This document shows, one piece after another, positions 460 to 7,385 of a stretch of 32,000 nucleotides of DNA; position 1 is the stretch's first letter, and each line of letters opens with the position of its first letter. This DNA comes from Gemmata obscuriglobus. Its GTDB lineage: Bacteria; Planctomycetota; Planctomycetia; Gemmatales; Gemmataceae. The stretch spans positions 6,000,001 through 6,032,000 of the forward strand of contig NZ_CP042911.1 of the NCBI RefSeq assembly GCF_008065095.1, given 5' to 3'. The position numbers were made by a program, and so were the translations under genes. The notes under the pieces were generated by a model, which saw nothing but the letters and a program-made list of their open reading frames with translations, was not told where the DNA came from and did not search any database.

Positions 460-1143
460 TTAACGCCTGCCCGTCGCTTGTACCAAGTACGCCTTCCGCC
501 GTTCGATCCGGTCCTTCGGTACCCCCGGCCAGTTGGCTGGATCGGCCATCACTTTGGCTAACCCGACCGAGTCGTTCTTGACTGCCAAGGGCTGCACTAG
601 TTTTCGCGACGCCGGTGTGTAGTCGCCCCGGAAACGGAGGTCGACAAGCACATCTCGCACCTTCGGATCGAGCTTGTCCCAGTCCACTTTGCCGTAGGTC
701 TCAACTACATCATTCTTTTCGCAGATCCGCTTCACGTCAGCAGCCGCCTCGTCGTAGCTGATGGCGAACAGAGCCTTCTGCTGGGCTCGGGTGATTTCCA
801 CTTCGGCGAGGTTGGCTTTGACGTAGGCTTTGGCGTCGTCGCCCTTCTTACCAGCCCCGTCGGCCAGAGACTTAGCGGTCGGTCCTGGCACCCCCGCTGC
901 CGTCAAGTCTTTCTCGGCCTGCGCGATCGACCGCTCCTTCAGGTCGTACCCGCGGCCGATCGTCACACCGGACGACGCCGACGGGACGTGCGGGCGCCGG
1001 CTGAAGTGCACTGATTTGGGGTCATCGTTCCCCTCGGCGTCGAACGTGAGCTGGCCGCGCGGAACTTTGAGATCGTCGTTTGCGGCAGTAGAGGTTGTAA
1101 CGACGATGGCGAGTAGACAGGCGGCGAACGGGAGCCGGATCAT
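460..1143 (-). CDS. Secreted pesticin/T4-lysozyme-like muramidase domain protein
   Basis: Track ORF 460..1170 begins at a TTG. The ATG at 1143 gives a classic signal peptide (MIRLPFAACLLAIVVTTSTAA) with GAGG 6 nt upstream. FDAEGNDD...SGVTIGRGYDL and DLRFRGDY resemble the catalytic Glu / TIG(x)G core of T4-lysozyme-like pesticin C-terminal domains. Confidence 0.7.
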   Translation of the reverse strand: MIRLPFAACLLAIVVTTSTAANDDLKVPRGQLTFDAEGNDDPKSVHFSRRPHVPSASSGVTIGRGYDLKERSIAQAEKDLTAAGVPGPTAKSLADGAGKKGDDAKAYVKANLAEVEITRAQQKALFAISYDEAAADVKRICEKNDVVETYGKVDWDKLDPKVRDVLVDLRFRGDYTPASRKLVQPLAVKNDSVGLAKVMADPANWPGVPKDRIERRKAYLVQATGRR

Positions 1144-1192
1144 TTCGGACCTCGGGTTCGGGTACAGCAACGTTGCGATCAGGTCGGCCCGG

Positions 1193-1996
1193 TCACTTAA
1201 ACTTGATTACCCAATAAACGACCACGTTCACCGGACGTGTCTCAGCATCGCCACCACCGGTGATCTCGTGGACGTGGTCACCGTCTTTTTCAAGTGGCAG
1301 TTGGCTCTTTTTGTTTTCATCGTTAATACTGGTTACTGTGTGGGCATTTTCCGCGGCGCCACCCGCTTTTCGGGATGCTTTGAGTTCCATCTTGAGAGGG
1401 TGGCTGTGAGCACCCTTTTTATCAGTTGTGAACGCGTCCTTGCCGGCGGGGCGCGCCGTCGCGTATCCCTGGCTCAGACCAACTGTTCGTGGCTCGCCTT
1501 TGTCTCGACCAGCTGGGCCCATGAAGGGGGACGTGTCGAGACCGCGGAGGAAGTACCCCCGGTAGTCGGGTAAGTGGAGAGCGTGTGGTGCCGACCTCTG
1601 TGGGATATAATTTGGACCGTCCAAAACAGCTCTCAGTTCCCACAGATCGGCGCGAACCCCGTCGAGGGACTTGTCCTCCCACTTCCGGCCGTCGCACAGG
1701 AGCCAACCGATTTCCGCCTCGGTCCAAACACCGCCGTCGCTCCTCTTCGGCGGCCATGTCCCAGCGAACGCCGTAACCGTCCCGACCGGCGGGCTGGTCC
1801 GCGACAGGTGGGAAACGTCTTCGGCCGTCTTGGTCGTCGTCAGGCGGTCGGCTAAGAGGGCGGCCTTCAATTCAGCAACCTCCTGGCGCAGTTTGGCCAC
1901 ATCGTCGGACTCGGCTGGCTTCATTCCGAACACCGCCACGGCCGCTACCACGGCCGCTCCGCACCCTGCCGCGGTGAGCCCCGATCGCCTGGTCAT
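1193..1996 (-). CDS. Phage tail collar domain (MdpB-like) protein with N-terminal Tat-like signal/anchor and short coiled coil
   Basis: Track ORF 1193..2176; the likely start is the ATG at 1996 (MTRRSGLTAAGCGAAVVAAVAVFG). Collar motifs present: PPVGTVTAFAG, GWLLCDG, LPDYRGYFLRG, His-rich AHSHP / GDHVHEITGGG, and C-terminal ETRPVNVVVYWVIKFK. Confidence 0.8.
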   Translation of the reverse strand: MTRRSGLTAAGCGAAVVAAVAVFGMKPAESDDVAKLRQEVAELKAALLADRLTTTKTAEDVSHLSRTSPPVGTVTAFAGTWPPKRSDGGVWTEAEIGWLLCDGRKWEDKSLDGVRADLWELRAVLDGPNYIPQRSAPHALHLPDYRGYFLRGLDTSPFMGPAGRDKGEPRTVGLSQGYATARPAGKDAFTTDKKGAHSHPLKMELKASRKAGGAAENAHTVTSINDENKKSQLPLEKDGDHVHEITGGGDAETRPVNVVVYWVIKFK

Positions 1997-6665: not shown

Positions 6666-6710
6666 ACGTGCGCCTCGGGGAGTCTGGCCGTTCGGAAGGT
6701 CGCTTCGTGA

Positions 6711-7385
6711 CTACTTGACGCGGATCAGGAAAAAGAGCTCCTGGTATGCGGGCTGATTGGCGCCTGAAGTGTCGCCGCCGTCCGCGTCCTTACCGTTCTT
6801 GTCCCCAACGAACCCGGTGAGCGGGTGCTCGTGTGCCCCGCCTTTCTCGGTCGGCGGGCCGTTGAGGTAGTCGTAGGTCCGGCCCCGGTAGTTCGGGATT
6901 TCGACGTAGCTGTTCCGGTCAGTGCTGGTACTGCCGTCGAACGTTGGAATGCGGTGCTCGTGTTCGCCATTTCTCCCGACCGCGAGTCCGGAAATGTTGG
7001 CGAGCTTCAGCGCCGGCAGGTTGTTGCTTCCACCGGCAGCCTTGGCCAAGTCGGCGACGGTATTCCGTCCGGCGGTCGCTCCTTTCGGGAACCGGTCGAC
7101 GAGGTTCGGCTTTGTCCCGGTCAGGATCGCCCCGTTCGTCTCCACCGGCTTACCGTCGCACACCTCCCATCCGGGCGGGACACTTGCTCGGTCGCCCCAC
7201 CACATGACGACCGTACCGATTGGCGGGCGCGTTTTCGACAACTCCGAAAGTTGCTCGTTGGCTTCCGTCAGCTTGAGTTCCAGAGCGCCGGCCAGCCGCG
7301 TGAGTTCCTCGACCTGTTTCGCTAAGGGGTCGGGGGCTACGCCCGCCAGCGGGGCGGCGAACAACTCGCGGCGGGTCGGGTCCAC
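6711..7385 (-). CDS. Phage tail collar domain (MdpB-like) protein with Tat-like N-terminus and coiled coil
   Basis: GTG start at 7385 with GAGG 7 nt upstream. N-terminus MDPTRRELFAAPLAGVA, coiled coil QVEELTRLAGALELKLTEANEQL, then collar motifs PPIGTVVMWWG, GWEVCDG, PNLVDRFPKG, GAHEHP and C-terminal NQPAYQELFFLIRVK. Confidence 0.8.
   Translation of the reverse strand: MDPTRRELFAAPLAGVAPDPLAKQVEELTRLAGALELKLTEANEQLSELSKTRPPIGTVVMWWGDRASVPPGWEVCDGKPVETNGAILTGTKPNLVDRFPKGATAGRNTVADLAKAAGGSNNLPALKLANISGLAVGRNGEHEHRIPTFDGSTSTDRNSYVEIPNYRGRTYDYLNGPPTEKGGAHEHPLTGFVGDKNGKDADGGDTSGANQPAYQELFFLIRVK

Follow-up and report, generated by a model that had tools for sequence, protein, structure and literature searches.

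Two genes for phage-type tail fibres flank the gene of an exported giant protein in a 32,000-nucleotide stretch of Gemmata obscuriglobus DNA (NCBI RefSeq assembly GCF_008065095.1, contig NZ_CP042911.1, positions 6,000,001 to 6,032,000, forward strand), the whole of which is referred to below as the window. Comparison with other genomes indicates that the conserved unit consists of the fibre(s) and the giant only, which together appear to form a two-part exported module. With the fibres, a known domain family gains new members in unusual surroundings; the giant is one of an orphan family of helical proteins; and the secreted muramidase encoded beside them in Gemmata is a lineage-specific addition, outside the conserved module. 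As far as the absence of detectable similarity can tell, the giant family and its obligatory pairing with fibres match no described system. The function tentatively put forward for the module, and held to be less than probable, is fibre-targeted membrane insertion directed at a cell envelope, probably antibacterial.

The pairing emerges from around 17 distinct loci of unrelated genomes, which were gathered and scored with collar and giant profiles as well as by reading the small neighbouring genes. A collar gene stands directly upstream of the giant gene and on the same strand in 12 of them (the window, L001, L002, L003, L008, L016, L017, L019, L020, L021, L024/L026 and the P0014 locus), with gaps or overlaps of 0 to ~350 nt between fibre and giant. 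The number of small fibres per locus ranges from one to four, as in L002, with three collar genes, in L017, with two collar genes and two other small coiled-coil proteins, or in L019, where the order is collar, giant, collar, collar. The partner in L015, L023 and L027 has the leader and the coiled coil, but a different beta-rich head of ~100 residues; the partner proteins of L023 and L027 (L023_207 and L027_181) are 59% identical. Finally, L005 (9902-15636) and L025 (84-5205) have no upstream fibre gene, and two small coiled-coil proteins are encoded downstream of the giant. These are paralogues of 185 and 140 aa with an N-terminal coiled coil, a different head and no signal; since the giant has no signal in these loci either, the presence of a leader appears to co-vary between the giant and its partners. 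No third conserved gene was revealed by an all-against-all BLAST of the neighbours, where only the collar family was common to the loci. From the four-gene arrangement described in the original prediction, the fibre/giant pair is therefore syntenic in other genomes, so that it withstands the refutation by lack of synteny set out with that prediction, whereas a muramidase gene lies beside the giant in none of the ~16 other loci.

In Gemmata obscuriglobus, where the stretch corresponds to GCA_000171775.1 and CP025958 at around 2.01 Mb, the four genes, all encoded on the minus strand, are separated by exactly 45, 43 and 49 nt (Table 1). This agrees with the earlier description, as do the GAGG motifs 7, 7 and 6 nt before the first two genes and the lysozyme gene. 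The collar 2 start is preceded by GGAG at 5 nt. The spacing and the common strand point to a single operon, the scan for consensus terminators being not above chance (11 found versus 9.3 expected). Because its GC3 of 0.675 differs from that of the giant (0.85), collar 2, and perhaps the lysozyme too (0.75), may have been acquired separately; the value for collar 1 is 0.80. Reading of the N-terminal sequences suggests that all four proteins are exported, as had been proposed: the N-termini of the giant and the lysozyme are of the classical Sec type, fibre 1 has only a short twin-arginine-like segment, TRRELFAAPLAGVA, and fibre 2 has an RR followed by a 20-residue hydrophobic stretch. The absence of sheath, tube, baseplate and capsid genes also holds for 10 kb on either side of the four genes, where none was called.

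Behind these N-termini, both window fibres consist of a coiled coil, short in fibre 1, and a gp12-type collar/head with two HxH motifs. Their scores against the Pfam family Collar (PF07484; 20.3 and 15.9 bits) are both under the cut-off of 24, but precomputed Collar matches are present on several syntenic homologues, and a PHROGs search places both in tail-fibre families. A profile built from an alignment of 11 collar proteins adjoining giant homologues matches the structures 9CUY, 1OCY, 1PDI and 5IV5 with E values between 4e-19 and 5e-15. The aligned region runs from profile position 66 to 246, spans the entire globular part and places the first fibre HxH on the HKH of gp12. The entries 1OCY, 1PDI and 5IV5 correspond to the short tail fibre gp12 of phage T4, where the HxH pair is a ligand of a zinc ion on the trimer axis, and 9CUY to a related short tail fibre. 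This match bears out the proposal that the collar proteins hold receptor-binding-type phage fibre domains. Collar and head are homologous to gp12 over their whole length, and the ETRPxN...WIIKxK ending is common to both. Unlike gp12 (527 aa), the fibres described here have 220-280 aa, with a short coiled coil behind the export signal, and are encoded without any baseplate or virion gene in the ~17 loci, always beside the giant. Their closest phage genes are just 24-27% identical.

The 11 aligned fibres follow a common plan. After the leader and a coiled coil 30-45 residues long, they have in common PP(I/V)G(S/T)V, GWxxCDG, LPDxRGxFLRG and G-H-x-H, the last of these twice, and they end in ETRPxNxxVxWIIKxK. 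An (S/T/L)RR followed by a hydrophobic stretch opens 7 of the ~19 fibres (for instance TRRELF, TRRDAF, TRRAAL, SRREAF and TRREMM) and is read as a twin-arginine signal, the remaining ones having apparent Sec-type leaders. Twin-arginine export of the RR group would suit a metal-loaded, pre-folded trimer. The N-terminal part of the fibres is better conserved than their heads. For the two closest giants (window and L001), which are 45% identical, the corresponding fibres are 44% identical in their first 78 aa and have unalignable heads. The collar protein encoded directly upstream of the giant in L002 aligns with the whole of fibre 2 at 33% identity. In addition, an (E/Q)LKxxFxxFK-type motif in the coiled coil is common to collar-headed and other-headed partners. 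Phage fibres show this pattern, in which the end used for attachment is conserved and the end used for binding can be exchanged. The similarity between giants tracks the N-terminal part of the fibres (rho 0.41) and not the head (rho 0.15), which is only a hint of fibre-giant co-evolution, because the pairs are non-independent and the split point failed for two proteins.

The giant itself proved far more elusive in database searches. Only chance-level coiled-coil matches (SMC, APG6) were obtained in Pfam, NCBIfam, PHROGs and PADLOC, seven family members have no Pfam match, and a PDB sequence search with a profile of seven giant sequences gave nothing below E 0.05. The profile searches suggested along with the original prediction thus led from the fibres to T4 gp12 and from the lysozyme to pesticin, but to no known family from the giant. 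A word-indexed search found just six homologues, and an exhaustive profile search of 1.84 billion representative proteins raised 137 family members (74 at E <= 1e-30), ~46 of them full length (1,350-1,750 aa). The family is collinear over its entire length. The relatives that were looked up are metagenomic singletons labelled "hypothetical protein", no member is named, most sequence clusters are singletons, and the distribution is patchy. According to their records, the hosts belong to Planctomycetota (Gemmata, Pirellulaceae and two metagenome-assembled genomes) and Hydrogenedentota, together with a Bryobacterales fragment. No literature linking Planctomycetes with tail collar proteins or with the giant family was found.

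The giant had also been called tape-measure-like, a label that finds no support. It shares with tape-measure and ejected internal virion proteins its length, its helical nature and an internal hydrophobic, glycine-containing segment. Unlike them, it matches no tape-measure family in PHROGs, Pfam or NCBIfam, has a signal peptide and large globular ends, and never occurs in a tail module; moreover, tblastn against 50,697 phage records and 72,556 plasmids found no relative, and 2.9 million viral contigs contained none either. These features also bear on the possibility that the operon is a degenerate prophage or tailocin, whose tail fibre, tape measure, second fibre and endolysin would be left from a decayed phage late region. 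The homology of the fibres to phage short tail fibres, the membership of the lysozyme in a T4-lysozyme-type fold family, and the integrase gene and transposase remnants nearby would fit such an origin. It is nevertheless highly improbable, given that the same full-length giant architecture is kept in at least 38 divergent members, that no capsid, tube, sheath, baseplate or terminase genes occur in any of the ~17 loci, and that the lysozyme has no phage match either. The prophage-remnant and tailocin readings are largely refuted by the missing structural genes and by the absence of the giant from phage collections, in agreement with the initial view that the genes constitute neither a prophage, a tailocin nor a classical bacteriocin operon. 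R- and F-type tailocins and extracellular contractile injection systems are likewise phage-derived and use tail-fibre-type receptor binding against envelopes. However, they differ from the present module, which lacks tube, sheath, baseplate and spike genes and whose parts would be exported singly by Sec or Tat, rather than being released by lysis.

Regarding its architecture, the giant combines globular ends with two long helical arms (Table 1). A signal-like N-terminal hydrophobic segment is present in 36 of the 46 long family members, and P0008 regains its signal if an upstream start is used. Conserved segments of the N-terminal domain are LWxLVNLQLDTW, AAIWLRY and RWxxxPxxG (residues 233-241 and 370-376 are among them). 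The AlphaFold2 model of this domain (pLDDT 73, pTM 0.75) has no Foldseek match at E <= 0.001, and its top non-significant matches are designed alpha/alpha toroids (TM 0.2-0.26), a hint at best. Among the invariant residues of the domain are W233, N237, D241, R305, W373, R428, W429, P433 and E535, and a glycan-binding or glycan-cleaving site in it is conceivable. Invariant residues in the C-terminal domain are W1262, G1492 and W1494.

The arms are distinguished by their constant length. Between the invariant residues P593 and P772, 31 of 38 members have a spacing of exactly 180 residues (SD, standard deviation, 1.8) at an identity of only ~25%, and arm 2, measured from L1010 to Y1200, spans 187-190 residues (SD 3.4). 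Because this spacing is so constant at such low identity while the length of the N-terminal domain varies (SD 53), the stalk appears to be built to a fixed length. No correlation between the two arm lengths is measurable, as both barely vary. The model of the stalk and the C-terminal part is poor (pLDDT 59, pTM 0.29), with a better local pLDDT of 73-86 in the middle region at ~910-1000, and it retrieves only generic coiled coils in Foldseek (SMC, MukB, Rad50, PrgA and tape-measure proteins), with E above 0.001.

Table 1. Coordinates of the features in the window (nt) and, for the giant, the corresponding residues.
Feature	Position	Strand	Remarks
Fibre gene 1 (collar 1)	6711..7385	minus	224 aa, GTG start
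Giant gene	2040..6665	minus	1541 aa, ATG start; orphan family of apparently exported helical proteins, ~1,500 aa
Fibre gene 2 (collar 2)	1193..1996	minus	267 aa
Muramidase (lysozyme) gene	460..1143	minus	227 aa, ATG start; probably secreted, pesticin-C-terminal type
GAGG upstream of fibre gene 1	7393..7396	minus	7 nt before GTG start
GAGG upstream of giant gene	6673..6676	minus	7 nt before ATG start
GAGG upstream of muramidase gene	1150..1153	minus	6 nt before ATG start
Giant signal peptide, Sec-type	6591..6665	minus	residues 1-25, ...PFVGA/DQ; from hydropathy
Giant N-terminal domain, all-alpha	4878..6590	minus	residues 26-596; from AlphaFold2 model
Giant arm 1, one long predicted helix	4419..4877	minus	residues 597-749; from secondary structure
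Giant hydrophobic helical hairpin	4275..4409	minus	residues 753-797; turn LAPFTGGAS
Giant middle region	3576..4274	minus	residues 798-1030; helices and small alpha/beta domain
Giant arm 2, long helices	3051..3575	minus	residues 1031-1205; length similar to arm 1
Giant C-terminal alpha/beta domain	2043..3050	minus	residues 1206-1541
Secreted PLAT protein gene, start only	1..302	minus	644 aa; runs off the window; full gene in L010, 16363-18297
PglW	8616-12803	plus	BREX type 2
PglX	12864-17075	plus	BREX type 2
PtuA (Septu)	17102-18370	plus	inserted between PglX and PglY
PtuB (Septu)	18367-19254	plus	inserted between PglX and PglY
PglY/BrxC	19277-22978	plus	BREX type 2
BrxD	25656-26969	plus	BREX type 2
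BrxHI	26966-29068	plus	BREX type 2

Between the arms lies the hairpin, in which hydropathy and secondary structure predict a hydrophobic helix, a turn and an amphipathic helix. Its LAPFTGGAS turn is the best-conserved stretch of the whole giant and almost invariant, P772 being present in 38 of 38 members. The weak tail of the exhaustive search contains small, otherwise unrelated proteins, each with a coiled coil followed by ALAPFTGGASL. These small proteins match families of phage internal virion proteins (phrog_418 at E 2.9e-9, and phrog_805), tape-measure families and, under the cut-off, SseC, a family of type III translocators (E between 2.7e-5 and 3e-3), and one eukaryotic protein of this kind matches ApoL. 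Internal virion proteins, tape measures, SseC and ApoL all insert into membranes. The link of the giant hairpin to these families, over 70-90 residues, is only a lead. A profile of the hairpin alone, run against a set of 5.8 billion proteins, added little (10 short unnamed matches, one of them to ApoL). Taken by themselves, the proteins P0127-P0139 are small (100-420 aa), come from phages, bacteria and one eukaryote, and hold a near-identical (A/V)LAPFTGGASL after a coiled coil. The motif could be the signature of a hairpin for membrane insertion that is widespread and not represented by a separate Pfam family.

The layout predicted for the giant, with a head, helical arms and a hydrophobic hairpin, resembles that of the pore formers ClyA, Hbl/Nhe and YaxAB and of the translocators SseC/YopB, which have a head, a coiled-coil stalk and a hydrophobic hairpin at the far end. 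The secondary structure, the hydropathy and the similar, fixed lengths of the arms fit such a head-stalk-hairpin layout, the model of the stalk having a pLDDT of 59. As in the case of the pore formers, export of the giant without retention in the membrane is plausible. Unlike ClyA-type proteins and translocators, however, the giant is four to five times larger, has a 570-residue all-alpha N-terminal domain and a separate receptor-binding partner, and shows no sequence or fold match to them. The term pore-former-like, used in the original prediction, is consequently not borne out beyond this architecture and the sub-threshold similarity of one hairpin.

A fixed-length stalk with exchangeable heads would also suit a surface adhesin or appendage, in which the fibres would be sticky tips for particles, algae, prey or mating partners on the stalk of the giant, and no pore would be formed. 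The combination of exchangeable heads with a conserved N-terminal part is in line with this, and so are the fold matches of the giant only to long coiled-coil proteins (PrgA among them) and the position of L002, L003 and L027 among mobile-element genes (ArdC, ParB, SSB, RepB primase). Such an appendage would be comparable to the coiled-coil surface proteins of conjugative elements or to the mosaic adhesive trimer (MAT) fibres of Bdellovibrio bacteriovorus. The latter, used in prey recognition, are bacterial trimers that resemble phage fibres and bear signal peptides, and their C-terminal tips, which vary and can be exchanged, recognise the surfaces of other cells (PMC10769870). MAT fibres hold a beta-rich, conserved ~130-aa domain directly after the signal peptide (PMC10769870), whereas in all 11 aligned fibres described here the leader is followed by the coiled coil and the collar, which sets them apart as far as the published description goes; the fibres described here also have a giant partner to which they are tied, and their small heads are of the gp12 type or of other types. 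An adhesin is nonetheless considered rather unlikely. It leaves the top conservation of the hairpin unexplained, at no locus are there type IV secretion genes closer than 8-10 kb to the module, and no outer-membrane or cell-wall anchoring motif was recognised.

The muramidase, in contrast to the giant, can be assigned to a known family. It scores 30.6 bits against Pesticin (PF16754), above the cut-off of 25.8, and in a PDB profile search pesticin entries are the only meaningful matches, with E37, T61 and D67 of the muramidase aligned to E178, T201 and D207 of pesticin, where mutation of any one inactivates the enzyme (PMC3390615). The three residues are invariant in 17 homologues. More than 529 homologues were found in Planctomycetota, Sphingomonadales, Myxococcota and Bacteroidota, many of them 50-60% identical, mostly standalone and of 205-230 aa, some with LysM; one that is 56% identical carries the NCBI name 'pesticin C-terminus-like muramidase'. 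The assignment as a pesticin-type lysozyme is upheld by these data, and the enzyme is, judging by its residues, catalytically intact and an ordinary member of the family. It shares PF16754 and the catalytic Glu/Thr/Asp with Yersinia pestis pesticin and the pesticin-domain type VI effectors (PMC3390615; PMC9620997). Unlike pesticin, it has no TonB-box translocation domain and no FyuA-type receptor-binding domain: the signal peptide leads directly into the enzyme, with only ~30 residues between them. An adjacent immunity gene, which the original prediction suggested looking for, is also missing, as there is no ORF in the 157-nt downstream or the 49-nt upstream spacer of the muramidase gene.

Other envelope-active enzymes are encoded near the module. 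In the window, the muramidase gene is followed, after the 157-nt spacer (52% GC), by the gene of a secreted PLAT protein, which probably has its own promoter and is a possible further cargo gene. Its product has a strong C-terminal PLAT match (E 2.9e-19) and a weak one to Zn_dep_PLPC (17.2 bits, under the cut-off). This domain order is that of clostridial alpha-toxin, the PLPC match being weak and sub-threshold. Beyond the PLAT gene come an rve_3 fragment and an integrase gene, then several small ORFs in a row and a gene for a DDE transposase. Two Planctomycetota genomes hold secreted DUF5675 proteins directly upstream of the fibre gene (L016, 8378-8986; L015, 4982-5578), and another is encoded 10 kb from the module in L003 (24062-24568). 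These proteins carry an H-x-G-N...S-x-G-C-I motif, and DUF5675 has been placed structurally with C82-like peptidases in a preprint (10.64898/2026.04.11.717860), so they are possible non-homologous counterparts of the Gemmata muramidase. A GDPD_2 gene is found in L001, while L021 encodes a zincin and a weakly M15-carboxypeptidase-like protein, whose best PDB match is a zinc D-Ala-D-Ala carboxypeptidase (E 0.0012). Secreted envelope-active enzymes recur in several loci, with different folds, although such islands may carry them in any case.

On the other side of the operon, and divergent from it, a complete-looking BREX type 2/Pgl system occupies positions 8616-29068 of the plus strand, with a Septu system embedded in it. 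PglZ was not recognised; the ORF at 23133-25601 has no PADLOC match, and its frame may be 21193-25659. The spacer between the fibre operon and PglW (7386-8615) has a lower GC content (0.61) and contains, on the plus strand at ~7882-8064, a remnant of the C-terminus of an integrase-core (rve-type) transposase ('...HYNKERPHQAKDN...'), an indication that the junction of the island bears the scar of an old insertion sequence. The module lies in variable regions. Among the loci, genes for integrases, transposases, ArdC, ParB, SSB, resolvase or RepB primase occur in the window, L002, L003, L008, L023 and L027.

These surroundings raise the possibility of an anti-phage or exclusion role at the level of the envelope. 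The exported fibres would be decoys or sensors that bind phages or mask the cell's own receptor, and the giant would be a hairpin-anchored, periplasm-spanning stalk of fixed length that blocks or punishes the machinery by which phages deliver their genome. The window locus lies 1.2 kb from the BREX and Septu genes, L019 adjoins CBASS, L021 adjoins TIR-domain and helicase genes, integrases and transposases are found at many loci, and the patchy distribution in mostly singleton clusters also fits defence. Moreover, phage ejection proteins carry a hairpin similar to that of the giant, and the constant arm length fits the spanning of a fixed distance. However, defence neighbours occur at only 3 of the ~17 loci, L016 and L015 being flanked by housekeeping genes (MutS2, riboflavin synthase). 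PADLOC 2.0 has no match for any of the four operon proteins at E <= 0.01, bar one chance-level match of 13 bits, no defence system of this kind, multi-kilodalton and exported in full, is known, and the secreted muramidases, peptidases and lipase-like genes nearby suit attack or envelope remodelling better. A defensive function is therefore looked upon with doubt. The probability left over by the readings considered here falls to other roles.

Returning to fibre-targeted membrane insertion, its proposed course would be as follows. Fibres and giant would both leave the cytoplasm, and the fibres, presumably as trimers, would use their conserved N-terminal part to attach to the giant. A glycan or protein on the surface of a cell envelope would be bound by the variable heads, and the hairpin of the giant would then enter that membrane and form a pore or a translocator. 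The Gemmata module has gained a second fibre gene, and the muramidase and the lipase-like PLAT protein would be co-secreted with it. The presence of the module in one apparent operon with a secreted muramidase, next to the PLAT/PLPC-like gene, makes an attack on the envelopes of other cells the most likely role in this organism, as a tail-less, phage-derived antibacterial or predatory weapon. A more specific proposal, a new class of tail-less, phage-derived secreted weapon in which exchangeable gp12-type trimers choose the target cell and the giant, as a stalk of fixed length, drives its hairpin into the outer membrane of the target, so that co-secreted hydrolases of cell wall and lipids, for instance the Gemmata muramidase, gain a route to the periplasm, is speculative and, on balance, unlikely.

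Several observations weigh against membrane insertion into other cells. The similarity of the hairpin to translocators and ejection proteins extends over ~70-90 residues with sub-threshold Pfam scores, and the stalk model, being of low confidence, does no more than suggest that the two arms pair in antiparallel fashion. As the hairpin belongs to a Sec substrate, it could be a simple anchor in the inner membrane of the producer, the module has no dedicated outer-membrane secretion system linked to it, and a minority subfamily of giants has no signal peptides. Conservation of the module does not extend to the muramidase, whose standalone family is very common, and no immunity gene adjoins it, although the pesticin activity domain lyses its producer when fused to a signal peptide (PMC3390615). 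Lastly, for the three loci that lie beside anti-phage systems a defensive role fits equally well.

Whichever function applies, a family of ~1,500 residues that is conserved end to end over several phyla, and that had no annotation at all, now has a partner, an architecture and residues that can be tested (P772, G776, the HxH pairs and W233/N237/D241). If the module attacks cells, it would represent a new antibacterial use of phage receptor-binding parts, with a swappable targeting head and without tail, capsid or lysis-based release. If it is defensive or structural, it would be a rare example of an exported machine built to a fixed length. As few secreted effectors have been characterised in Planctomycetes, even a basic localisation result would be informative.

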